Source of the DNA: Escherichia phage 04086
Sequence record: OR842557
Reading direction: 5' to 3' (one strand)
DNA: 64,000 nt
Positions 5,374 through 18,379 of the stretch are shown one piece after another. Position 1 is the stretch's first letter. Every line of letters starts with the position of its first letter. The notes below the pieces were generated by a model, which saw only the letters and a program-made list of their open reading frames with translations, searched no databases and was not told where the DNA came from. The translations under genes were made by a program, and so were the position numbers.

Positions 5374-6866
5374 AAATCCACCTGTTTCATTACGTAATTA
5401 AATTTCTCATCAGCATAACGTTGAATACGTTCTAAAGCGTGTTTGAGGGCGTAGTTCAAATGAACATATTTCTTTTTAGCCGTAGCTGATTTAGGCTTAA
5501 CACCCATGTCGTCGATGATATCCCACACCTGTGCTGTTGATTTAGAGGCATGTTTACGGAGTACACGACCAATTGTCTGGAGTACAATGATTTTAGATTT
5601 TACTGGATGAGCAAATACAACGTGGTGAAGGTTCTTAACGGAAATACCAGTAGAGAACACACCATAACTTGCCACAACAATAATACCCTTACCATTTTCC
5701 GCCATTACTTTCAGAGCATTACGCGTTTCAGTATTAACTTCACCTGATACATAATAAACTTCTTTATGTTGCTCTTTAACCATTTCAAAAAGAGTTTTAC
5801 CGTGTTCGATGTTTTTAAACATCAGGAATACGTTCTCTTCTTTCTTAGCGAGTTTAACAGCTAAATTAGCAACCCATTTATTACGACGAGTAGCCTTAGT
5901 AATGACTTTAATTTCTGATTGGTAATCTTTACCTTTCATCTTAACAGTGAATTCGTCTGGGTATCGAAGGAAAATACTGTTGATTTTAAGGTCAGTAACC
6001 TGTCCTTCTTCCATTAATTGGGAAGTGGATACCGGCTTAAACACATCACCAAACAAACCCATATATTGCATTAAATTAGCTTTACCATCTTTTAAAGAAC
6101 CAGACAAACCGAATTTAAACATACAGTTGGTTAGGCCTTCGATGATAGTAGAAATAGATTTACCTGTAGCCAAGTGGCATTCGTCGTTCATAAACATACC
6201 GAACTGAGCAAACCATTCTTTAGGTTGCTTGATAGCAGTTTGATAAGTTGAAACATAAATCATTGCATCGGAATCACGAGCAGTACCTGAACGAATACCA
6301 AGCATTGCTGCTTTAGGGAACAATCGATAATCGATGAAGTCATTAATCATCTGGTCGACGAGTGCAGTAGTAGGAACCAGAATAAGGATTTTACCTTCGT
6401 AGTTCTCAACGTAATATCGACTCAAGAGCGCCTGAATCAATGATTTACCTGCGGATGTAGGTAAATTCAGAATTGCACGACGTTTTGTCAGGCCGTTGTA
6501 TACGGCTTCATTCTGATACCAATGAGGCTCAATCTTGGTAGACCCTGAATAAATTTCTTGAGAAGCTACCCATGAATCGAAATCTTCACGAGAAATATCT
6601 TCCTGTTCAAGAATACGTGGGTCAATCCACAGAGAGTATTCAAATTGTTCGGCGAACTTTTTAATTTGAGGGACCAGTCCATAAGGCAGTTTACGGTTAT
6701 AATCTAGAAGACGAATACGACCATCCCATTGTCCATAACGAAATTTAGGGTTGAATTTATATCCATCAGCTTCAAAGCTAAAATAGTCTCTGAGTTCGTA
6801 GAATGTGGATTCATCACACTCGATACGGACATGACTAAAATTATCAAAATGTACTTGAATTTGCAT
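5370..6866 (-). CDS. uvsW: UvsW RNA-DNA and DNA-DNA helicase
   Basis: 498 aa; matches remembered T4 UvsW, with helicase motifs (LNLPTSAGKS Walker A, MNDECH DExH box). Confidence 0.92.
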   Translation of the reverse strand: MQIQVHFDNFSHVRIECDESTFYELRDYFSFEADGYKFNPKFRYGQWDGRIRLLDYNRKLPYGLVPQIKKFAEQFEYSLWIDPRILEQEDISREDFDSWVASQEIYSGSTKIEPHWYQNEAVYNGLTKRRAILNLPTSAGKSLIQALLSRYYVENYEGKILILVPTTALVDQMINDFIDYRLFPKAAMLGIRSGTARDSDAMIYVSTYQTAIKQPKEWFAQFGMFMNDECHLATGKSISTIIEGLTNCMFKFGLSGSLKDGKANLMQYMGLFGDVFKPVSTSQLMEEGQVTDLKINSIFLRYPDEFTVKMKGKDYQSEIKVITKATRRNKWVANLAVKLAKKEENVFLMFKNIEHGKTLFEMVKEQHKEVYYVSGEVNTETRNALKVMAENGKGIIVVASYGVFSTGISVKNLHHVVFAHPVKSKIIVLQTIGRVLRKHASKSTAQVWDIIDDMGVKPKSATAKKKYVHLNYALKHALERIQRYADEKFNYVMKQVDL

Positions 6867-7247
6867 AAGTAATTCTCAGTTATAAATATAGTTATATTTA
6901 TACACCAACAAGAGACTAATTATGGATACTCAATATATTGAAGAGCTTCGTGCACTCGAAGATAAAAAAGAAGCTAAAGCTAAGTTAATCGAATACGGCG
7001 AACAGTTTGGTTTAAAACTTAAGAANAGATTCATCGCATTCAATACGGACATGACTAAAATTATCAAAATGTACTTGAATTTGCATAAGTAATTCTCAGT
7101 TATAAATATAGTTATATTTATACACCAACAAGAGACTAATTATGGATACTCAATATATTGAAGAGCTTCGTGCACTCGAAGATAAAAAAGAAGCTAAAGC
7201 TAAGTTAATCGAATACGGCGAACAGTTTGGTTTAAAACTTAAGAAAA
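6808..7247. repeat. N-bounded direct duplication (N at 7026) covering uvsW start, late promoters and inh start; probable assembly artifact
   Basis: ~218 nt present twice with minor substitutions, joined at a single N. Confidence 0.6.
6881..6902. promoter_or_regulatory. Divergent late promoters: TATAAATA (plus, inh) and TATTTATA (minus, uvsW)
   Basis: tataaata 6881-6888 and tatttata 6895-6902 in the uvsW-inh intergenic region. Confidence 0.55.
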
Positions 7248-7813
7248 CCCGTTCGTTTGATAATTTGATTATCGATATCTCTGAAGGCCTTAAAGCCTTG
7301 GCTGACGAACCACTCCCAGAAACCGACGGGTTGTCTATTTCTGATTTGATTGATGCTGCTGACGAACTCACCGGTGATAACGATTTTATCGAAGGTGTAG
7401 AACCAGCTAAAGAAGAAGCAACCCTGTTGTTCGATGCTCCTGAGGCGGTTGTTGAAGTAATAGAGGTAGCCGAACTTCCTAAGGTAGAGATTATCGAAGA
7501 GGATGTTCCATTTGACGAAGAGAAATTCAAAGAGGCTATAGCCAAGGTTGTTGAATCTGAAAAACCTGTATTCTCTTTACCTGAAAACTTCAGTCCTAAT
7601 CTTTTGCTTATCGGTAAGAACCCAGGTTATTGCACTGTTCCTTGGTGGATTTACCAATGGATTTCTGAGACTCCGGATTGGAAAGAACGTCCAACCAGTT
7701 TCCAACATCCTACCGCACACCAAACACTATTCAGCTTGATTTATTACATCAATCGTAATGGGTCTGTTCTAGTACGAGAAACTCGTAACTCATCTTTTGT
7801 CACTTTAAAATAA
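7142..7813 (+). CDS. inh: Inh-like acidic protein (inhibitor of prohead protease), start lies in duplicated copy
   Basis: 223 aa acidic protein between uvsW and hoc as in T4; equivalent ATG in first copy at 6922. Confidence 0.5.
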   Translation: MDTQYIEELRALEDKKEAKAKLIEYGEQFGLKLKKTRSFDNLIIDISEGLKALADEPLPETDGLSISDLIDAADELTGDNDFIEGVEPAKEEATLLFDAPEAVVEVIEVAELPKVEIIEEDVPFDEEKFKEAIAKVVESEKPVFSLPENFSPNLLLIGKNPGYCTVPWWIYQWISETPDWKERPTSFQHPTAHQTLFSLIYYINRNGSVLVRETRNSSFVTLK

Positions 7814-7823
7814 GGGTTTTATT

Positions 7824-8672
7824 ATGGCTTATACCGTAGATATTGCTCCTTTGGCGGCTACGGCCGTTATTGGAGCAACAACCAATTTCACTGCGACCGG
7901 TTCCGGTGCTGCAGCTGAAGGTACCGAATCATTTGTCTGGACCGTTGATGGCGTTCCTCAATCTTCTGTGACTGCTGCAATGGATTATGTTGCTGTTGGC
8001 CCGGCAGGCAGCAAGACTATTAAAGTTGTTGCAACAACTACACCGGCGGACGGCGAACCAGAAACAGCTGAAGCCGAAACAACTTTAACTATCCAGAATA
8101 AAACCATTTCCGGTGTTTCTGTGACATTAACCCCAGCTTCGATTAATGTTCCGGAAGGCACTCCAGCTTCTTTTAAAGCGGATGTGGTCGGCGCTCCTGC
8201 TGGTGCTACTTTTGCCTATTCTTGGAAGAAAGACGGTTCTCCTGTAGTTGGCACCACGGATACTCTAGCAATCGATACAAGCACTGAAGGTTCACAGGTT
8301 ATTGAAGTTTCTGTTGTGGTTTCGGCGACTGATTATAACCCGGCGACTGTCACAAAAACCGGTAATGTAACAGTCACGGCTAAAGTCGCACCGGTTCCGG
8401 ATGGCGAATTACCTTACGTTCATCCACTCCCTGTTCGTAATTCAGCATATATTTGGGTTGGTTGGTGGGTTATGGATGAAATCCAGAAAATGACTCTTGA
8501 AGGCAAAGACTGGAAAACAGATGACCCGGATAGCCCGTATTATTTGCACCGATATACACTTCAAAAAATGATTACCGACTATTCAGAGGTTGATGTACAA
8601 GAATCTCGTAATGGTCGAATTATTCATCGCACCGCTTTAGAAGCTGGTATTATATACGATTACATTTATTAA
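7824..8672 (+). CDS. hoc: Hoc, highly immunogenic outer capsid protein (short form with fewer Ig-like domains)
   Basis: Ig-like repeats and a C-terminal capsid-binding domain matching remembered T4 Hoc (LPYVHPLP, WVMDEIQKMT, GKDWKTDDPDS, YYLHRYTLQKM). Confidence 0.85.
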   Translation: MAYTVDIAPLAATAVIGATTNFTATGSGAAAEGTESFVWTVDGVPQSSVTAAMDYVAVGPAGSKTIKVVATTTPADGEPETAEAETTLTIQNKTISGVSVTLTPASINVPEGTPASFKADVVGAPAGATFAYSWKKDGSPVVGTTDTLAIDTSTEGSQVIEVSVVVSATDYNPATVTKTGNVTVTAKVAPVPDGELPYVHPLPVRNSAYIWVGWWVMDEIQKMTLEGKDWKTDDPDSPYYLHRYTLQKMITDYSEVDVQESRNGRIIHRTALEAGIIYDYIY

Positions 8673-8676
8673 TAAT

Positions 8677-8696
8677 GGGCCGCAAGGCCCATTTTG
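8677..8696 (+). terminator. Intrinsic terminator (GGGCC-gcaa-GGCCC + attttg)
   Basis: GNRA tetraloop hairpin followed by T-run directly after the hoc stop. Confidence 0.65.
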
Positions 8697-8716
8697 CATT
8701 AAAGTACAAAATTCCT

Positions 8717-8746
8717 GTTTACAAGTTAAAAATTCTATGTTAAGAT
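8717..8746 (+). promoter_or_regulatory. T4 early-type promoter (GTTTAC -35, 17-18 nt spacer, TAAGAT -10)
   Basis: gtttacaagttaaaaattctatgttaagat upstream of ORF 8776. Confidence 0.45.
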
Positions 8747-8775
8747 GGGTTTACCAACTCAACGAGAGAATTGTT

Positions 8776-8976
8776 ATGGATAAGGTTAAAGTACATTTTT
8801 TACACGAATCTGGGTTGAATTTTATAGAAATTGCTAAAAAAATGGGCGGGACCGCTAAGGACATGGCCAAAGCATGGGTTGATGTAGAACAAGCCAAGGC
8901 CAAATTTAAAGCGAAAGAAAAGGTTGTTTATCGTAAGAGATTGAACAATAAGGTTCGGCGCAAAGCGCATTCTTAG
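8776..8976 (+). CDS. Small basic protein with helix-turn-helix-like segment
   Basis: ORF 8737..8976; ATG at 8776 follows the early promoter; segment LNFIEIAKKMGGTAKDMAKAW resembles an HTH; basic C-terminus. Confidence 0.4.
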   Translation: MDKVKVHFLHESGLNFIEIAKKMGGTAKDMAKAWVDVEQAKAKFKAKEKVVYRKRLNNKVRRKAHS

Positions 8977-8987
8977 TCTAAAGTAAT

Positions 8988-9014
8988 ATGCTTTAAATTT
9001 AGATGTGTTATAAT
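8988..9014 (+). promoter_or_regulatory. T4 middle promoter (MotA box ATGCTTTA plus TATAAT)
   Basis: tatgctttaa 8988-8996, 13 nt spacer, tataat 9009-9014, upstream of rnlB. Confidence 0.45.
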
Positions 9015-9100
9015 GGGTCTAGGTCCTTCCGTTCAACCATTTGGTTTGGTGACAGAAGACTACTAGCTCTTCTATTTAATTATATTTATTATGGTGATTT

Positions 9101-10105
9101 ATGTTCAAGAAATATAGCAGTCTCGAAAACCACTACAACAATAAGTTTATCGAAAAACTCCGTACTAACGGTTTGACCACTGGTGAATGGGTAGCACGTG
9201 AGAAGATTCATGGAACCAACTTTAGTTTAATCATAGAACGTGACGCAGTCACATGCGCCAAGCGCACTGGCCCTATCCTCCCTGCTGAAGATTTCTATGG
9301 CTATGAAATTGTACTTAAGAACTATGCTGATTCTATTAAATCTGTTCAACATCTAATTGAATCGATTAATTACCAGTCATACCAGATTTATGGCGAATTC
9401 GCTGGGACAGGTATCCAGAAGAATGTGGACTACGGTGATAAAGACTTTTATGTGTTCGATATCCGAGTTACTAAGGAAGATGGTACTGAATCTGTTCTAA
9501 CCGATACATTGATGGAAGCATTCTGTATTATCCATAAGTTCAAGGTTGCCCCATGTCTGGCCACTGGTAGCTTTGAAGACCTTATTAAACTTCCTAATGA
9601 TTTTGATTCAGTTGTTCCTGATTATAATTTTGCAGTGGATAACGCAGGCTTAACTATTGCAAACTCAACTGATTTTATTCCTAAGGTTGAAGGTAAAGTA
9701 TTCACGGCCGAAGGCTTTGTACTGAAACCTGATGTTCCTACCTGGCTTCCAAACGGAAATCGTGTAGCGATTAAATGTAAGAACTCTAAATTCAGTGAAA
9801 AGAAAAAGTCTGATAAACCTATTAAGGCTGCAGTGGTATTGTCCCAAGACGATATGGATTTGATGTGGCAATTCACCGATTATGTGACTGTTAACCGCAT
9901 TAACAATGTCATCAGTAAGATTGGCGAAGTATCTAAAAAGGATTTTGGAAAGGTAATGGGCTTGACAGTCCAAGATATCTTAGAAGAAGCTGCCCGTGAA
10001 GAATTAGAATTAACCGATGCAGAAAATCCTGTTGAAGTTAAAAAGCAACTTGTTGAGTGTGTAAAAGATACCCTACGAGCCGTATGGATTGAATTAGTGT
10101 CGTAA
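9101..10105 (+). CDS. rnlB: RNA ligase 2 (Rnl2)
   Basis: 334 aa; N-terminus [13 protein letters not shown] and [15 protein letters not shown] (ligase lysine motif) match remembered T4 Rnl2. Confidence 0.92.
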
Positions 10106-10114
10106 GACGACAAA

Positions 10115-10135
10115 GGGACCTCACGGTCCCTTTTT
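10115..10135. terminator. Bidirectional intrinsic terminator between convergent rnlB and gene 24
   Basis: gggacc-tcac-ggtccc followed by ttttt on plus and T-rich run on minus. Confidence 0.65.
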
Positions 10136-10136
10136 G

Positions 10137-11417
10137 TTAGTTTAATTCAGTCAAAACTTTAGGAAGTTTCACACCAAGCAATACAGACATATCAGAACGT
10201 CCAGCCATCAAATCCATATTAGTCGCATCAATAATACGGGCTTGTTTATCATCAGCAGTAACCGTATAAGGGTTAGCAGCCAGTGCATAACGAACCATTA
10301 ATGCAATAGATGGTTGCAGGCTTTCAGGGTCAACGACCACTTTAAATGTACCTACATGTTCAGGGTCAGCCAAATCAAGGCCTTCTGTATACGGCGCATA
10401 GAACAAAGAACCTACTGCTTCTTTCCCACCAAATTCCTCTTTAACACCTACAGTAACATAATCAATTGGCGTGTTGGTATCACAATACAGAGGCAAACCA
10501 TTTTCCAGGAATCCGTATGCACTTGCAGAAAGATATTTGTCATTCTGTGGGGTATGTCTCAACCATCCGGAACCAGCCAGAACAGCAGCTACACGAGTAC
10601 TCGCTACTACATAAGTTGCCGTATAAGAGGTTGCGCGCTGGATATGAGAAACCATTTCACACACCAATTCATAAAGCTTGCGAGAAGCTTCCGGTGAGTT
10701 AGCATAACTCAGGTCAATTAAGCCATCATCACACAAACCTTCAACTTTATAACGCTTGGAAACCGTAACCAGGGACTGAAGAATATCTTTGTTGATTTCA
10801 TCAGCCATTTCAGTAGCCAGGAGGTCTTCCAAGAAATTAGGGGCATCGAAACCATTTGCTTCTAGGTCTTGAGCCAGTTCTACAGTAACAGTACTCTTCA
10901 ACTTACGGGATTTAACCGGAGCGTTCCATTTATTAACGATGAATCTGGCTTCAGAGATATCTACTTCTTGAGGACCTTCAAAACGCTCAGTCAGTGCGGC
11001 TTCGGACATAATACGGATAGTCAACTTAACAATAGCTTCTTGAAGTTGTTCGTATTCATCACCAGTAGCACCGGCAAATGGTGATGCTACCAAAGCTTTA
11101 TAAACCACGTTTTCAAATTGGAACAAATCATCTTTAGCATAAACAGCACCTGCAGTGAAAACCGGGATAGTGGCACGGTCTTTAGCGGATACTGCGCCTG
11201 AATAAGTAGCACCCGTCTGGAAAGATAATTCGTCTTTTTCTGTAAGATATTTGATACCATATAGAGCAGCCAAAGGTTGGTTAGTACGCTGCTGAGCTAC
11301 AAGGTCGGTATAAACAAGTTTGGTCGTAGCTCTGGTTAAAGCTACTAAATTTGGACGACCAATCGAAGAACTCGAAGTAATGGTCGACTCTTTTAAAAGG
11401 TCGTTAATTTTAGCCAT
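10137..11417 (-). CDS. 24: Head vertex protein gp24
   Basis: 426 aa (T4 gp24 427 aa); gp23-like paralog located next to gene 23. Confidence 0.85.
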   Translation of the reverse strand: MAKINDLLKESTITSSSSIGRPNLVALTRATTKLVYTDLVAQQRTNQPLAALYGIKYLTEKDELSFQTGATYSGAVSAKDRATIPVFTAGAVYAKDDLFQFENVVYKALVASPFAGATGDEYEQLQEAIVKLTIRIMSEAALTERFEGPQEVDISEARFIVNKWNAPVKSRKLKSTVTVELAQDLEANGFDAPNFLEDLLATEMADEINKDILQSLVTVSKRYKVEGLCDDGLIDLSYANSPEASRKLYELVCEMVSHIQRATSYTATYVVASTRVAAVLAGSGWLRHTPQNDKYLSASAYGFLENGLPLYCDTNTPIDYVTVGVKEEFGGKEAVGSLFYAPYTEGLDLADPEHVGTFKVVVDPESLQPSIALMVRYALAANPYTVTADDKQARIIDATNMDLMAGRSDMSVLLGVKLPKVLTELN

Positions 11418-11446
11418 TGCTATTTTCCTTATTGAGAATATAATTT

Positions 11447-11454
11447 TATTTATA
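11447..11454 (-). promoter_or_regulatory. T4 late promoter (TATAAATA on minus) for gene 24
   Basis: tatttata at 11447-11454, 30 nt upstream of the gp24 start. Confidence 0.6.
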
Positions 11455-11460
11455 AAAGTG

Positions 11461-11490
11461 GTTTACACACAAAAAGCGTCGTGTTACTAT
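11461..11490 (+). promoter_or_regulatory. T4 early promoter cassette (GTTTAC-N17-TACTAT with conserved TACTATAGACCTATCAAAAC core)
   Basis: Same architecture as the promoter cassettes at 46235, 49852, 55336, 58812, 61428. Confidence 0.55.
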
Positions 11491-11519
11491 AGACCTATCA
11501 AAACATGAGGAGATTAAAA

Positions 11520-11786
11520 ATGAACAAATTAAACTTTATCCGTACTACACTTTCTAACCTTGACAAAGACATCAAAGCTCTGGTAGAAAAATTCGGTACC
11601 AATCCTAACGGTAATGCAGTTAATGCATTGGTTAAGAAATACGAAGCCCTGGCTTATGAAACCGACTTCTGGTGGAACGGTGAATACTCTACCCATACCA
11701 AAGACAAATCTGGTAACTGGCTGAAAATCCAAGAAAATCGTATTGACTTCCGTGATATCATCAACCGTCGAGTTAAAGCGGAGTAA
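11520..11786 (+). CDS. Hypothetical protein (88 aa) cotranscribed with GIY-YIG endonuclease
   Basis: ORF 11505..11786; ATG at 11520 follows RBS gaggag; plus-strand insert between minus-strand genes 24 and 23. Confidence 0.45.
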   Translation: MNKLNFIRTTLSNLDKDIKALVEKFGTNPNGNAVNALVKKYEALAYETDFWWNGEYSTHTKDKSGNWLKIQENRIDFRDIINRRVKAE

Positions 11787-11789
11787 AAT

Positions 11790-12461
11790 ATGAATTATTT
11801 AATTTACAAAATAACCAATCTCGTTAATAACAAGATTTATGTAGGAGCCCATGCCACTACAGATGTTAATGATTCTTATATGGGCTCCGGAGTTAACATA
11901 GTAAAATCCATAAAGAAATACGGTTTAGAGAATTTTAAAAAGGAAATCCTTTTCAATTTCGAAACATCTGAAGAGATGTATGCTAAGGAAGCCGAACTAG
12001 TTGACGAGGCTTTTGTCATGAGAACGGATACTTATAATGCAGCCTTAGGCGGCAAGGGTAATCCTGTTATAGTAGCTTTACAGGAACCTGGGTATCGTGA
12101 GATGTTATCCGAAAAGACCAAGGCAGGTATGACTGAGAAAGTAAAGGCCCATATTTCAAAAATGAAAAAAGGTGTAAAACAATCACCTGAGCTTATTGAA
12201 AATAAACGAATCGGTAATTTAAAATTTTACAAAGAAAACGGTTCAAGACTTAAAGGTAGAAAATTATCAGAAGAACATAAGGCCCGTATAAAGGCTAATT
12301 CCAATAAAGGCAAAAAATTTGTATTTGTTGATATAATGATTAAAGGCCGTAGATTTGATAGATACGAAAATGCAGCGAACTACTTTGGAGTAAGTGGTAA
12401 AACAATACGTAACTGGATTAAAGAAACCAGGCCACAATTTGCTGATTGTTATAAGTTATAG
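11790..12461 (+). CDS. GIY-YIG homing endonuclease (Seg-like)
   Basis: N-terminal YKITN..KIYVGA...YMGSG matches the GIY-YIG motif; basic C-terminal DNA-binding region; same locus as T4 segD between genes 23 and 24. Confidence 0.75.
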   Translation: MNYLIYKITNLVNNKIYVGAHATTDVNDSYMGSGVNIVKSIKKYGLENFKKEILFNFETSEEMYAKEAELVDEAFVMRTDTYNAALGGKGNPVIVALQEPGYREMLSEKTKAGMTEKVKAHISKMKKGVKQSPELIENKRIGNLKFYKENGSRLKGRKLSEEHKARIKANSNKGKKFVFVDIMIKGRRFDRYENAANYFGVSGKTIRNWIKETRPQFADCYKL

Positions 12462-12471
12462 AAACAAGAAT

Positions 12472-12489
12472 GGGAGACCGAAGTCTCCC
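12472..12489 (-). terminator. Hairpin terminator after gene 23 (GGGAGAC-uucg-GUCUCCC on minus)
   Basis: UUCG tetraloop hairpin downstream of the gp23 stop, followed by T-rich sequence on minus. Confidence 0.6.
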
Positions 12490-12520
12490 AAATAATTTTA
12501 AGAATTAATAACTTATGTTA

Positions 12521-14080
12521 TCAAATTCCTTTGACATAAACCCGACGAAAATAACCATTCAGACCAAGGCTGTTAACGATGTCAGGCATACCGCTCTGAA
12601 TACGTTTGGTAGGAGCCTGTGCAGACGGGTCAGCGAACGGGTTGATACCGATACCGTAACGAGTTTTGAAGCCCATTACCGGTTGGAAGTTCTTCGGATC
12701 GGAACCACGCAGCGGGGTCAGTGCAACGTACGGAGCATAGTAGATACCTGCGTCCATTTCGTTAGCGCCTTTATAACCGATGGTGAAGTAATCGGAACGT
12801 GCATACTGGTCGATGTAAACGCGATATTTACCACCAAGAACACCGGCAAATACTGCTTTGGTTGTGTCAACGTTGAAACCTTGACCCAGACCTTGAGCTG
12901 CATAACTTACAGAAGTATCAACTGCAGCCAGTACGTTAACTACGTTACGGGAAGCGATGATGAAGTTACCAGCACCACGACCGGTCTGACGAGCGATTTC
13001 GGCTGCTTCTTTATCAATCTGGAACAGAAGGGCTTTAAAGCTCTCACCGGCCCAACGAGCACCACGGATATCAATCGGGTCCTGGAAGTCAAACACACCA
13101 GCTTTAGCGCCAACGGTGTTGGTCATACCAGATTTACCAACCTGTGCAGAGTAGTTAATCCAATCGATAACTTCACGGTTGATTTCGAGCATAATTTCGG
13201 TAGCAAGGATACCGGACAGTTCAGCATCTGCATCCATACCGTGTACTGCACGAAGGTCCTGTGCCAGTTCGATAGAGTAGCTTGCTTTCAGCTGACGGGA
13301 TTTAGCTTCGATAACTTGTTTGTCGATGCGGAAGCCCATTTCGTTCCACGGGTTATCCTGGGAACCGTTAAAACCTTCCTGAAGTTCGGCGATAGAAGTA
13401 GCCATACCTTCAGCCAATTCAGCCAACTTACCAGCTTCAATCAAAGCGGTAACAGCAGCATCCAGTTTAGCGGCATCGGTAGCAGCAGAATCAACGGTTA
13501 CAGCTTCAACAGCCTGGAAGTGTGCAGCACCGGTAGCTTCGAAGAAGTGGGAATAAATTTTACCAACTTCCAGAACTTTGCTTGCAGCCAGTGCTTCGAA
13601 AGATTTAGCAGCACCCTGACCAGAGAACATAGCGTCCGGAGAATACATCGGATGGAAAGCTTCTTTAGCGCCAGCAGCGATAGGGTCTTTACCATAAACT
13701 GCGCGCAGGGCAAATACCTGGCCGGTAGGGTTATTCAGAGGCTGAACACCACAAATATCAAAAGCAATCAGATGAGGAATAGCACGACGAACCATACCCA
13801 TTACTGCCGGCCCAATCTGAGTTACAGCACCAGAAGTCTGGCCGGCTGCGATATTGGTAGCATCATAACCGTGGTCACCACCAATTTCAGCTTCGGTCAA
13901 GAAAGAACCAAATGCTTCGGAGATTTTTTCATCACGGTATTCCGGGGCAGTCAGGATGTCTTGTTCCTGGTTTTCGAAAATTTTAGCGATGATAGCTTGT
14001 TTAGAAGCACCCACGATTTCAGGAAGGGCTTCGTTTTCCAGCAGAGCGGACCATTTTTGAACTAATGCATTCTTTTTCAT
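12521..14080 (-). CDS. 23: Major capsid protein gp23
   Basis: 519 aa; very high identity to remembered T4 gp23 over most of its length (AIIAKIFENQE, GGDHGY, IAFDICGVQP, YRVYIDQYA, FRRVYVKGI). Confidence 0.97.
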   Translation of the reverse strand: MKKNALVQKWSALLENEALPEIVGASKQAIIAKIFENQEQDILTAPEYRDEKISEAFGSFLTEAEIGGDHGYDATNIAAGQTSGAVTQIGPAVMGMVRRAIPHLIAFDICGVQPLNNPTGQVFALRAVYGKDPIAAGAKEAFHPMYSPDAMFSGQGAAKSFEALAASKVLEVGKIYSHFFEATGAAHFQAVEAVTVDSAATDAAKLDAAVTALIEAGKLAELAEGMATSIAELQEGFNGSQDNPWNEMGFRIDKQVIEAKSRQLKASYSIELAQDLRAVHGMDADAELSGILATEIMLEINREVIDWINYSAQVGKSGMTNTVGAKAGVFDFQDPIDIRGARWAGESFKALLFQIDKEAAEIARQTGRGAGNFIIASRNVVNVLAAVDTSVSYAAQGLGQGFNVDTTKAVFAGVLGGKYRVYIDQYARSDYFTIGYKGANEMDAGIYYAPYVALTPLRGSDPKNFQPVMGFKTRYGIGINPFADPSAQAPTKRIQSGMPDIVNSLGLNGYFRRVYVKGI

Positions 14081-14101
14081 GTGTTGTATAACCTTATTAA
14101 A

Positions 14102-14917
14102 TTAAGAAATTCGTGATGCTGCGATTGCAGACAGGTCCGCGAAGGACAGGGTAGGCTTAGAGCCTTTTTCTTCAACTGCTTCTGAAATGTAATTCAGGGC
14201 CGCAGCATCGTCTACATTTTTATTTATAGCGGCTTCGGTGATTGGGTTTTCAACGTCAGACTGACCTTTAACCATTTCAACAATAGCGCCAATTTTTTTA
14301 CCGAATGCATCGGAATAATCCATGCCTTCTACCAGAGAACTAACTTTTTCTTTTTGGGATTCAGTCAGGTCTTTAGTTGCTTCTGTAACAGCAACTTCAC
14401 GCTGTACGTAATTAATATACGCATCGCGCTTACCAACTTCTTCGAACAGACGAGCGGTTTCATCTTTCTGCTCTTGGAGCTCTTCTTCCATTTCAGCGAC
14501 AACATCTACTGCTTCTTCTGGAACAACCACATTGTGTTCAACAAACAGTTCTTTCATACCCATCAACATGGATTCGAACAGTTCGGCTTTAATACCTTTA
14601 TCAACAGCCAGCTGGTTTTCAGCCATCCATTCTTTAGCAACGTGGTCAAGGAAACGACCGGCAGCTTCTTGGATTTTCTTATCGGCTTTTTCTTCAGCTT
14701 CTTCTTTATTTTTCTCGACTTCTTCTTCCGCTTTTTCAGCGATTTTAGCGATGTGAGATTCAGCCAGTTTCACGGCGTGTTGCTTGACGGTAGCTTCGAA
14801 TACAGTGCCGAAAGTTTCTTTTGCTTCCGGAGAAATATTAACTGATTCGAAAATACTGTCAAGAGCAACGGAAGCATCAATATTCTGTGCTTCGGCGATC
14901 AGTTGTTCTTTAAGCAT
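14102..14917 (-). CDS. 22: Prohead core scaffolding protein gp22
   Basis: 271 aa acidic coiled-coil protein (T4 gp22 269 aa) between genes 21 and 23. Confidence 0.8.
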   Translation of the reverse strand: MLKEQLIAEAQNIDASVALDSIFESVNISPEAKETFGTVFEATVKQHAVKLAESHIAKIAEKAEEEVEKNKEEAEEKADKKIQEAAGRFLDHVAKEWMAENQLAVDKGIKAELFESMLMGMKELFVEHNVVVPEEAVDVVAEMEEELQEQKDETARLFEEVGKRDAYINYVQREVAVTEATKDLTESQKEKVSSLVEGMDYSDAFGKKIGAIVEMVKGQSDVENPITEAAINKNVDDAAALNYISEAVEEKGSKPTLSFADLSAIAASRIS

Positions 14918-14944
14918 TTTGTAGTCCTGTTGTTTAGATAATAA

Positions 14945-14952
14945 TATTTATA
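14945..14952 (-). promoter_or_regulatory. T4 late promoter (TATAAATA on minus) for gene 22
   Basis: tatttata at 14945-14952, 28 nt upstream of the gp22 start, overlapping the gp21 stop. Confidence 0.55.
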
Positions 14953-15583
14953 ACGCTTTTTTCATGGCCTCTGCGAGAGCCATAAAGGCGTCATCGGCAC
15001 TGGTATCGGTTTCTACCGTTTGTGATTCTGTAATTTGCTTTGGAGTTACATAAGCATCAGGAGCAGATGGTCCCCATACTGCATCAACACCGACGGTTAA
15101 TTTATAACCTTCATTTACACGCTTATATCCTTTGTTGGTTTCGGTTAAAGAACCAAGACCACGAGAACTAACACCAGGAACCCAACCCGCTCGAATATTT
15201 GCGGCTAGTTTATCACCCGGGCCATGGTCACCTTCGATGATACGTGCACGTCCATAAACATCATTACCTTTCCACCACATATCTTCAATAATGATAGCAG
15301 CTTGCATAGGGTCAACGTTAGCACGAGGTGGATGGTTTAATTCTCCTAAAGCTTGTTTAGTAGCAACCTGTTCTGCCATATAATCAGAAACGGCTTTTTC
15401 CAAAATAGGTTTTGGGTAAAGGCGTTTATTACGGTTAACTACCTCTGCTTGCATGAAAATGCCTTCTATATAAAGGCCGGGAGCAAGCCCAGAATTTTTT
15501 CCATCATGAGATTCCAACATAGGAACCCCATCGATAATTTCACCTGGTTGTCCCCAATGTTCGATGAGCAATTCAGGTTTCAT
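14948..15583 (-). CDS. 21: Prohead protease gp21
   Basis: 211 aa (T4 gp21 212 aa); position between gp68 and gp22. Confidence 0.85.
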   Translation of the reverse strand: MKPELLIEHWGQPGEIIDGVPMLESHDGKNSGLAPGLYIEGIFMQAEVVNRNKRLYPKPILEKAVSDYMAEQVATKQALGELNHPPRANVDPMQAAIIIEDMWWKGNDVYGRARIIEGDHGPGDKLAANIRAGWVPGVSSRGLGSLTETNKGYKRVNEGYKLTVGVDAVWGPSAPDAYVTPKQITESQTVETDTSADDAFMALAEAMKKAL

Positions 15584-16011
15584 TAGTTAAGTCCAAAAGC
15601 TTTACGTTTAGAACGGGCTTTCTTACGCTTACGTTCGGCACGTACTTGAGTAGACGGGTTAGCACGTTTGGTTTTAGATGCTTTACGAGCAATCTGACGG
15701 CGTTTTGCTTTAGATAAACCTGTCGTTTGGAATGCGTTACGTTGACGGGTTTTAATATCTTTAGTACGAGTAAGCACACCTTTAGAGGAAACGTGTTTAA
15801 CGATAAATTCGTTAAGAGCCATTGATTCATTTAAAGAACCAAGAGCGATAGCACATTCGATATCGCCTTCAGCAATCATGTTCTCTACAAGATTATTTAT
15901 ATCGCTTTTCTCGAGCGCTTCAGAAAGAGCAGCAAAACGTCCCTGTGCTTCTGGAATTTTGGCCTCTACGCTTTCTAGAGTTAATTCGTAATCATCAGGG
16001 ATAAGGAACAT
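15583..16011 (-). CDS. 68: Prohead core protein gp68
   Basis: 142 aa (T4 141 aa), basic C-terminus; synteny 20-67-68-21. Confidence 0.6.
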
Positions 16012-16256
16012 TATTCGTCGTCCTCGTCGTCATCCGCATCGTCAGATTCTTTTTTGTCTTTCTTATCTGCTTTATCGGATTTTTCGTCGTCTTCGTCATC
16101 TTCGTCAGCTTCTTCGCCTTCAATCATAACGGAGCGAGCAATTTCTGCTTTACGGGCTTCAATCAAAGCGGTTACTCGAGATTCGATAAGCGGGGCTGCT
16201 GCTTTACGAACTGCTACGAGGTCGTTTGATTTAATAGCTTCGATTAAATCTTCCAT
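16011..16256 (-). CDS. 67: Prohead core protein gp67
   Basis: 81 aa with highly acidic C-terminus (T4 gp67 80 aa); synteny. Confidence 0.6.
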
Positions 16257-17830
16257 TAGAAATCCTCTTCTTCTTCATCTGGGTTTTGGAAACGAGCCTC
16301 TTTAGACTCTTCTTCAATTTGCTTAGCTTCTTGATTAATTTCTTCGTCGGTCATTTGGAGGAAATCTTTCATAGCCGTTTGATGTGAAATGTACTTACCA
16401 ATAAATGGTTCAGCCATCGTTAGCATATTGATTCTGCGTTCCATGATTTCAGCATCTTTCATTTCACTGAAATAGCTATCACGGTTAAACGTAACTTTAA
16501 TATTATTTATTTCCTTTTCCCACTCATCTTCTGTAATAATCTTTTTAAGAATGAGGTTTGTTTTTAACGGGTCTAGGAAAATTTCTTCAAATTTGTTTTG
16601 TAGTTGACGAATCCATTTAGAGAATTTTAATTCGTCACGAGTGATTGCTGTACCGGCATCAAACATAACACCAGAATTAGACTCGCTAGGGATACGTGAT
16701 TCAGGAACACGCAACGCACGGTAAAGTGCTGTGCGGAAATAAAGAACGTCATCCATATCACTCATACCAGTAGCACCTGGCATTGTATCAACTTCTGTTA
16801 CCGCTTTACCATCACGACGTTGCAACCAATAGTCTTCAGTCATGGACATATTGTGTTGTTGGTTTTTAATTTTACCCGTCGAAGCATCATACACCACACG
16901 GTTTTTCATCGTGTTCATGATATGTTGCATTTGTGCTGCAGCCTTACGTGAAGGCATATTACCTGTATCGATATAAAACACACGACGGTCAGGAGCACGT
17001 GTAATACGGTAGATGACCATTGCGTCTTCCATCAATTTAAGCTGGTTTGCAGGCTTAATAGCACGTTGCAAATAGCCAATGATGTTTTTACCACAACAAT
17101 CTAATAATCCTGAATGGGCATAAACCACAGCAGCACGAGGAATTTTAACTTTAGTCCCGGCTGAATAAATGCGTCCATCTGCGCAATAGCTTTCATGACC
17201 TGTGTCGTAAACGAAAAACTCGCGATATCCGTCTACAACTTTAACACCATCTTCCATACGTGTAACGATTTCACGAATATATTGGACTTGGCGTGGGTCT
17301 AAGCGACGAAGCTCTTGTACGCCATCTTTCATTTTTTTAGGGTTTATAATTTTATGAAAGAAAATTCTTGAGTCTACATACCAGCGTTGGAAATGGTCAG
17401 TGCCTTTACGTTGGAAATTTAAAAGGTTTAAAACTTCACTGAATTCGGCCAAGATTTTATCTTTAATTGCTTGACTAAATTCTGTCCCGTCTAAGTTCAA
17501 TGCAACTACTTCTTTATCATCCTCATAGACAATAGCGTCAGACACAATTTCCTGTACGGCGTTGTCGACTTCATAGTTGTTCATTAAATTACGGTAGGTA
17601 TCAATAAGTTCCCTGGTATTTTTAACTTCAGGCTCATTACTACCAAACATCTGTTGCATAAGAGCATTATAAGGAATATTTTGCTCTTGTGTCTCAATTT
17701 CGCGAGCGCCATCATCAAGCTTAGGTGCGGTGACAGACTCTAAATTGTTATTAATTTGTTGTTTATATTCTTTTTCGTCTTCATTAGCCCATGGCTTAAG
17801 AAAACTTAATATTGTATTAAAGTTTGCCAT
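16256..17830 (-). CDS. 20: Portal vertex protein gp20
   Basis: 524 aa, identical in length to T4 gp20; synteny. Confidence 0.9.
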
Positions 17831-17878
17831 TAGAGTCTCCGATGAATGGGATAAGGAGCCGAAGCTCCTTGATAATTC

Positions 17879-17886
17879 TATTTATA
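17879..17886 (-). promoter_or_regulatory. Candidate late promoter (TATAAATA on minus) upstream of gene 20
   Basis: tatttata 17879-17886; a hairpin (ggagc-cgaa-gctcc, 17855-17868) lies between it and the start. Confidence 0.5.
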
Positions 17887-17887
17887 C

Positions 17888-18379
17888 TCATTCCCACCAA
17901 TCGATAGCGAACGTACTTTCAAACGTTTCAACTTCGTTGTTCGAATCCCAATCCATCTGGACTTCACCAACGTTAGTAGGCCATAAGCCGTAAATTGTAA
18001 CTTCTTTGGTCACAGTCTTGCCGTCACGATGGAACTGGCGAACTACTGCTTGTTTCTTATATTCTGCAGGTGCTGCACCGGTAATTTCATTGGTCATACC
18101 ATGACAGAGATTCTGCCAATCAACAATTGCTTGACGAGTGTCATGTGCATCATCGTTATAAATGGTAATGGTCCAATCATCAAACGTACGGTCACCAGCT
18201 ACGTTAATTTTACGGTTCATGTAGCCAACCGGTACTTTTTCTACAATGCCTGCTGGCATAGGTGCTGCTTTACATTTAAAGCTAAAGTTTTTACCAAGAA
18301 ATGGAATTTCCACTTCGAAAAGGTTAGGGCGTGCAAAGTCACCTGACTCAAATGCACGAGTGATATCTGTCAACTCCAT
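17888..18379 (-). CDS. 19: Tail tube protein gp19
   Basis: ORF 17888..18409; start at MELTDITRAFESGDFARPNLF (18379) gives 163 aa as in T4; high identity to remembered T4 gp19. Confidence 0.88.
   Translation of the reverse strand: MELTDITRAFESGDFARPNLFEVEIPFLGKNFSFKCKAAPMPAGIVEKVPVGYMNRKINVAGDRTFDDWTITIYNDDAHDTRQAIVDWQNLCHGMTNEITGAAPAEYKKQAVVRQFHRDGKTVTKEVTIYGLWPTNVGEVQMDWDSNNEVETFESTFAIDWWE

Follow-up and report, generated by a model that had tools for sequence, protein, structure and literature searches.

The 223-aa open reading frame (ORF) on the plus strand between the minus-strand capsid genes 24 and 23 of Escherichia phage 04086 is most probably (roughly 70%) a free-standing homing-endonuclease gene of the SegD lineage, present as a recombinant allele and inserted into an early transcription unit of Dhakavirus type that was already in place. 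This reading was reached by comparing genomes and by structure prediction. The window, i.e. the whole analysed stretch of 64,000 nucleotides (record OR842557), had been the subject of a preliminary description in which an early promoter, an 88-aa ORF and a GIY-YIG endonuclease gene formed one self-contained unit, transcribed against the late genes and suspected of moving as a module. The orientation and the identity of the genes were borne out by the analysis, and so was their position, which is that of segD in T4. The three parts, however, proved to have different histories.

The resident early unit and the inserted DNA

The source phage is of T4 type and its closest group is Dhakavirus, with MX01, WG01 and EcoM_005 being 95-97% identical to it (window 6000-18000). 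The ORFs had been accurately described in coordinates and strand, and the features of the locus are collected in Table 1. The A/T-rich stretch that precedes the early promoter is overlapped, on the opposite strand, by the gene 24 late promoter. The hairpin between seg and gene 23 has a free energy of -13.5 kcal/mol (z -4.06), and its loop reads CGAA in the sense of seg and UUCG in that of gene 23.

Table 1. Features of the locus from gene 24 to gene 23, in window coordinates
Feature	Position	Strand	Description or basis
Gene 24	10137-11417	-	late capsid gene; Pfam Gp23 match, E<=1e-102
Late promoter of gene 24, TATAAATA	11447..11454	-	pattern search
T4-type early promoter	11461..11490	+	-35 box GTTTACA (11461-11467), 14-nt spacer, extended -10 TGTTACTAT (11482-11490)
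Ribosome-binding site of the small ORF, GAGGAG	11507..11512	+	7 nt before the ATG; kept in relatives
Small ORF, 88 aa	11520..11786	+	early; phrog_6003; resident in seg-less relatives
seg indel, 683 nt	11777..12459	+	alignments to WG01, MX01 and fDHCT2
GGAG site ahead of seg	11780-11783	+	sequence
seg, predicted SegD-family free-standing GIY-YIG homing endonuclease gene, 223 aa	11790..12461	+	homology, profile, model
Diverged 3' half of seg, linker and DNA-binding domain	12125..12459	+	drop in nucleotide identity
Hairpin common to the converging transcripts	12471..12490	both	fold dG and z; present in seg-less phages
Gene 23	12521-14080	-	late capsid gene; Pfam Gp23 match, E<=1e-102
Last 10 codons of gene 23	12521..12553	-	silent differences; right-hand recombination junction
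Genes 22, 21 and 68	beyond gene 23	-	order after gene 23

Comparison of the intergenic region among relatives separates what is inserted from what is resident. The Dhakaviruses MX01, fDHCT2 and WG01 lack seg alone: the same promoter, the 88-aa ORF and the hairpin, presumed to be a terminator, lie between their genes 24 and 23, and the only indel against them is the 683-nt segment, which replaces 13 nt reading GATTGCATA[A/G]TAC in all three phages. Its flanks are mostly 90-100% identical to theirs (for WG01, the right flank only). The segment is placed between the end of the small ORF and the hairpin, and carries a new end of the small ORF, the GGAG site and the seg ORF. The insertion thus remodels the last two codons of the small ORF, from ...RRVKIA* to ...RRVKAE*, and the ATG of seg follows the new stop codon by 3 nt. 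Since these seg-less relatives keep both the promoter and the small ORF, the two are best regarded as an old resident early unit, and seg as a later insertion.

The same arrangement without seg extends to other genera. Gaprivervirus VR7 and Mosigvirus JS09 have diverged versions of the small ORF at this locus, each behind an early-type promoter with a GTTTACA box, their amino-acid identity to it being about 65-68% (VR7) and about 35% (JS09, of the RB69ORF188c type). Gene 24 itself varies in copy number among these phages, being single-copy in the window phage, MX01 and fDHCT2 and a tandem duplicate (24a/24b) in WG01 (L019 10-2573), IME08 (L008), UP19 (L011), VR7 (L007) and the metagenome contig L015. 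Beyond gene 24, in rnlB (window 9300-9700), identity falls to 66-70% against L015 and to 49-72% against RB69-like phages, compared with 87-100% nearby, which suggests another recombination patch.

Early promoters of T4 follow the consensus -35 GTTTAC(A/T) and -10 TAnnAT after TGn, with an A/T-rich region upstream, and the promoter at 11461 fits this consensus, its spacing being 17 nt on a TTTACA alignment. A generic sigma-70 scan returned seven sites against 5.2 expected, which is not significant alone. The more specific motif GTTTACW-N15-18-TANNAT was found nine times in the window against 0.66 expected, in every case on the plus strand (8717, 11461, 46235, 46576, 49852, 50183, 50641, 58812 and 61428), and most of these sites have the extended -10 TG(A/G/T)TACTAT in common. 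Moreover, in relatives with Dhaka- or RB69-type sequence both boxes and their spacing are invariant around a mostly variable 14-nt spacer, a footprint which argues for a real promoter; in VR7 the GTTTACA box is kept and the -10 is different. The strand bias of the motif set and the conservation of the boxes, in phages with and without seg, make the early promoter credible. It can hardly be described as the endonuclease's own, given its presence in the seg-less MX01, fDHCT2 and WG01; judged from this conservation, it is a resident promoter which serves the small ORF.

The small ORF is a real gene. Its variable sites fall on the three codon positions in the ratio 9:5:27 across 14 alleles, with synonymous changes in the majority, and against MX01 it shows nine synonymous and no non-synonymous codon differences. 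Both the positional bias and the synonymous excess speak against the alternative of a non-coding ORF, which had been named as a possible objection, and indicate that the ORF is coding and under purifying selection. It matches phrog_6003, a family of unknown function (E=2e-48), and belongs with JS98 ORF173c, VR7ORF190c and RB69ORF188c. A Pfam search gave no match, and neither did a Foldseek search with its model (pLDDT 75) at E<0.5. Close homologues numbered only 7 among 5.8 billion proteins, while among 1.84 billion representatives its profile found only 13 matches, of which several are long multi-stretch proteins.

As regards the expression of seg, neither a late (TATAAATA) nor a MotA-type middle promoter was found on the plus strand in 11380-12530, and the region 11740-11840 folds like shuffled sequence (z -0.29), with no hairpin over the ribosome-binding site of seg such as those of I-TevI and segB. 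With neither motif nor start-hiding hairpin, seg would most simply be expressed by read-through from the resident early promoter; we infer that it is transcribed in this way and has no promoter of its own. Such expression would be atypical, since the endonuclease genes of T4 are read from middle or late promoters, none of its homing endonucleases being known to have an early one (PMC2988022); for T4 segD in particular, no promoter was recognised in that 2010 review.

The SegD protein and its mosaic allele

The 223-aa ORF is a full-length SegD homologue and a predicted homing endonuclease. Over all 223 residues it is 57% identical to T4 SegD (E=9e-86), and its closest annotated protein overall is the SegD of Dhakavirus IME08 (86% identity); it also matches PHROG 314, 'homing endonuclease' (E=5e-50). 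Single-sequence Pfam scores lie below the gathering thresholds for SegE_GIY-YIG (PF19835, 22.7 vs 25) and GIY-YIG (PF01541, 17.5 vs 22.6), matches which many of its homologues do carry, and those to NUMOD3 and HTH are likewise sub-threshold only. A single-sequence search of the PDB found nothing meaningful; a profile of 50 homologues was required, which matched the catalytic domain of I-TevI (1mk0, E=0.003) and, separately, its DNA-binding domain (1i3j, E=0.006).

The AlphaFold model (pLDDT 85; 88-95 for residues 1-80 and 82 for 81-90) points in the same direction. The top four Foldseek hits are the two I-TevI domains, with probability 1.0: 1mk0 and 1ln0 for the catalytic domain, at target TM-scores of 0.63-0.68, as expected of a GIY-YIG fold in the predicted structure, and 1i3j for the C-terminal DNA-binding module. 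The protein is accordingly divided into a catalytic domain (about aa 1-90, 11790-12059), a NUMOD3-like linker (about aa 100-178) and a helix-turn-helix (aa 179-223). Full-length homology, profile and fold agree on the GIY-YIG endonuclease call of the preliminary description.

The catalytic residues, mutation of which would have spoken against that call, are intact as far as the family defines them. The GIY and YIG motifs are represented by L-I-Y (residues 4-6) and Y-V-G (17-19), on model strands 2-10 and 16-23, and Y6, Y17 and G19, invariant in the 50 homologues, align with Y6, Y17 and G19 of I-TevI. The protein has each of the 19 residues that are invariant in the family, E67 and N83 among them. 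Y82-N83 align exactly with Y89-N90 of I-TevI, and E67 lies one residue off I-TevI E75 in a weak profile alignment; its invariance and this proximity make E67 the candidate metal-binding glutamate. No residue aligns with Arg27 of I-TevI, whose residues 24-29 are part of an insertion against the profile of the SegD family. The family has no invariant arginine, and H21, D28, Y30 and G32-S33-G34 take the place of the I-TevI helix. The same H21...D28-x-Y30-x-G-S-G loop is found in T4 SegD, reportedly an active endonuclease in the 2018 work of Sokolov.

The window allele is, as its uneven identity to other alleles indicates, a recombinant of the common catalytic half and a different linker and DNA-binding half. 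In nucleotides it matches other alleles at 94-99% in the 5' half of seg but at 65-77% from about 12125 on, a step which places a recombination breakpoint inside the gene; among alleles from the phage collection the 3' half is best matched by IME08, rising to 89% in the last ~60 nt. In the protein, IME08, F2 and P0004 agree with the window over aa 1-115 at 98-100%. Over aa 116-150 no other allele found exceeds 63% (the closest being the metagenomic P0005), nor any annotated phage allele 57%, and over aa 179-223 identity is 82% with IME08 and 58% with F2 and EcoM_005. Exact copies of the allele were found only in Logan metagenome contigs. GIY-YIG enzymes typically show domain shuffling of this kind, which could give the window SegD another target.

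Transfer between lineages and competing explanations

Several phages with a different capsid background carry the same DNA. In F2, JK45, ATK47, mobillu and LF82-1 the capsid flanks are RB69/JS09-like, 96-100% identical to the seg-less JS09, with gene 24 being 55-80% and gene 23 60-92% identical to the window. Within these flanks F2, JK45, ATK47 and mobillu match the window at 94-99% across the small ORF and the 5' half of seg, and the Dhaka-type small ORF accompanies seg at 94-100% identity in RB69-like backgrounds including LF82-1, where it has replaced the resident allele of RB69ORF188c type (35% amino-acid identity). F2 (L005) and JK45 (L009) are labelled Tequatrovirus, yet their 24/23 flanks are nearer to Mosigvirus than to T4 (for F2, 96-100% identity to JS09 vs 70-98% to T4); by this comparison the two show capsid-module mosaicism across genus labels.

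The extent of the transferred DNA varies from case to case. The left junction lies at the start codon of gene 24 in F2 and JK45, so that the Dhaka-type promoter is included, and in the 5' leader of the small ORF in ATK47 and mobillu, whose promoter is of the recipient type; in LF82-1 it lies a few bases beyond that of ATK47 and mobillu, and this phage, too, has kept its own promoter. On the right, the junction falls in the terminal ~31 nt of gene 23. Likewise, the window allele recurs at 100% identity in metagenome contigs whose left flanks are of two kinds, L014 with a single gene 24 (identical over 11667-13096) and L015 with a WG01-like duplicated gene 24 (identical over 11682-12707), the stretch in common being 11682-12707. 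Such variety of junctions is consistent with what co-conversion and double-strand-break repair in homing would produce, and the variable length of the co-transferred DNA would confine any cleavage site to about the equivalent of 11682-12552, the shortest tract common to every inferred transfer.

The preferred reading, that of a seg gene inserted into a resident unit, may be put together as follows. The early promoter, the 88-aa gene and a hairpin in common with gene 23 would have stood antisense between genes 24 and 23 before the insertion placed seg between the end of the small gene and the hairpin, rewriting the two final codons and bringing the new ATG to within 3 nt, where read-through from the resident promoter would transcribe it. 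In a mixed infection SegD would cut seg-less relatives near the locus, by analogy with SegA, B, C, E, F and G, and repair from the seg+ genome would copy seg with flanks of variable length. The small ORF would be carried along in this copying, joined in some cases by the promoter and by the final 10 codons of gene 23. We infer active homing of the window allele from these comparative patterns.

The same patterns could also stem from ordinary recombination, since T4 SegD is reported not to initiate homing (2018, Virology 515:215, in the summary given by PMC9523250). Under this alternative, seg would be a passive or decaying passenger, with its patchy distribution and mosaic structure due to general recombination and occasional deletion. 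The genomes of T-even phages are indeed highly mosaic, as seen from the identity drops in rnlB and gene 24, and the conserved gene ends that hold the junctions are where any recombination event would be resolved. A decaying gene, however, would hardly have remained intact at 223 aa with every family-invariant residue in place. The catalytic half is 98-100% identical in amino acids across several backgrounds, which fits recent spread and selection, and the transferred DNA is far more alike between lineages than the flanks are. A passive passenger of this kind is unlikely. A bolder extension, in which seg would be an early-expressed second cistron encoding a retargeted and actively spreading SegD, perhaps with the 88-aa protein as its functional partner, is distinctly unlikely on the sequences at hand.

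The suggestion that promoter, 88-aa ORF and endonuclease gene insert together as one mobile cassette is not baseless. T4 has a promoter-like element, ATTTACA-17-TATTAT (L003 1743-1771), homologous to the Dhaka-type early promoter and ending its -10 box 21 nt upstream of segD, while the seg-less Tequatrovirus RB3 has a 24-23 spacer of 83 nt (L020 603-685) with neither promoter nor small ORF, though with the late promoter TATAAATA of gene 24. Relative to this empty site, the insertion of T4 segD includes the homologous promoter-like element. Moreover, the small ORF does travel with seg, nearly identical, into RB69-like phages, and the promoter came along in F2 and JK45. Against these observations, promoter and small ORF are found at the locus in seg-less phages of three genera, the indel within the genus is seg alone, and T4 segD has no small ORF. 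ATK47, mobillu and LF82-1 gained small ORF and seg while keeping their own promoter. What holds of the suggested module is therefore the joint movement, and not a defined unit: the variable left junctions make the small ORF a hitchhiking, co-converted flank. A fixed cassette is very unlikely.

The end of gene 23 also deserves consideration. The peptide of its last 10 codons, YFRRVYVKGI, is invariant across four genera, with 5-9 silent substitutions between lineages, and the window version differs from MX01, fDHCT2 and EcoM_005 by 8-9 synonymous changes in 31 nt amid near-100% identity (the frame-shifted EcoM_005 row was left out of the tail comparison). In the phage collection this version is common only to the seg-less WG01, which differs from the window by one mismatch between 12460 and 13357, and an exact IMG/VR search with the 33-mer gave no match. 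It is highly improbable that the silent cluster, conspicuous as it is above an invariant peptide, is a self-immunity variant of the target co-evolved with the unusual DNA-binding half, since the exact same variant in WG01 rules out seg-specific immunity and other lineages each have a silent pattern of their own. On these alignments the tail is a standing polymorphism and a recombination junction, not linked to seg. As a separate observation, EcoM_005 (L002; 155 kb vs ~170-kb relatives) is without ~170 nt of the 3' part of gene 23, near window 12650-12800, and its major head protein is annotated as shortened, which may be an assembly or annotation problem.

Relation to known endonucleases and implications

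Among known systems, T4 SegD is the nearest, with the same locus, the antisense orientation, 223 aa, a promoter-like element upstream and a hairpin downstream. It differs in that no small ORF lies between the promoter-like element and segD, and in its linker and DNA-binding half, with segment identities of only 18-49%; moreover, T4 SegD was tested biochemically, whereas the window protein is known here from sequence and model. IME08, EcoM_005, UP19, F2, JK45, ATK47 and mobillu have the same layout as the window, with small ORF, 3-nt gap and seg, the latter already annotated as SegD or 'homing endonuclease'. The catalytic half of these alleles is 94-99% identical in nucleotides, and aa 116-150 set the window allele apart.

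The predicted protein resembles I-TevI in its two-domain, 'beads on a string' organisation, both domains being matched by profile and fold. I-TevI is encoded in the td intron of T4, while the window seg is free-standing, and the SegD model is without the Arg27/His31 helix and has the conserved D-x-Y-M-G-S-G loop there instead. SegF and SegG, free-standing genes of T4, are described as causing marker exclusion and co-conversion with cleavage outside their own gene (PMC2988022; Liu et al. 2003, as listed in PMC10448857). They share with the window seg the presence or absence among close relatives and the variable-length co-transfer of neighbouring markers; in contrast to them, the window seg is antisense to its neighbours behind an early-type promoter, and both its homing and its cleavage site are putative.

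The appropriate annotation is a SegD-family homing endonuclease, with promoter and small ORF as resident early functions. An element of this kind is already known and ordinary for T4-like phages, the new part being the recombinant allele. The locus nevertheless offers a natural example of a free-standing endonuclease gene exploiting an existing transcription unit, and of flanks of variable length dragged between lineages next to the major capsid gene, a widely used phylogenetic marker. Near-isogenic pairs with and without seg are available (the window or L014 vs MX01 and fDHCT2; L015 vs WG01), which makes homing and the mapping of its target testable in a lineage whose only studied member reportedly does not home. 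If early expression as a second cistron holds true, this gene would be unlike the homing endonucleases of T4, with their middle or late promoters, and if the allele is indeed retargeted, the specificity of the window SegD would differ from that of the common allele.
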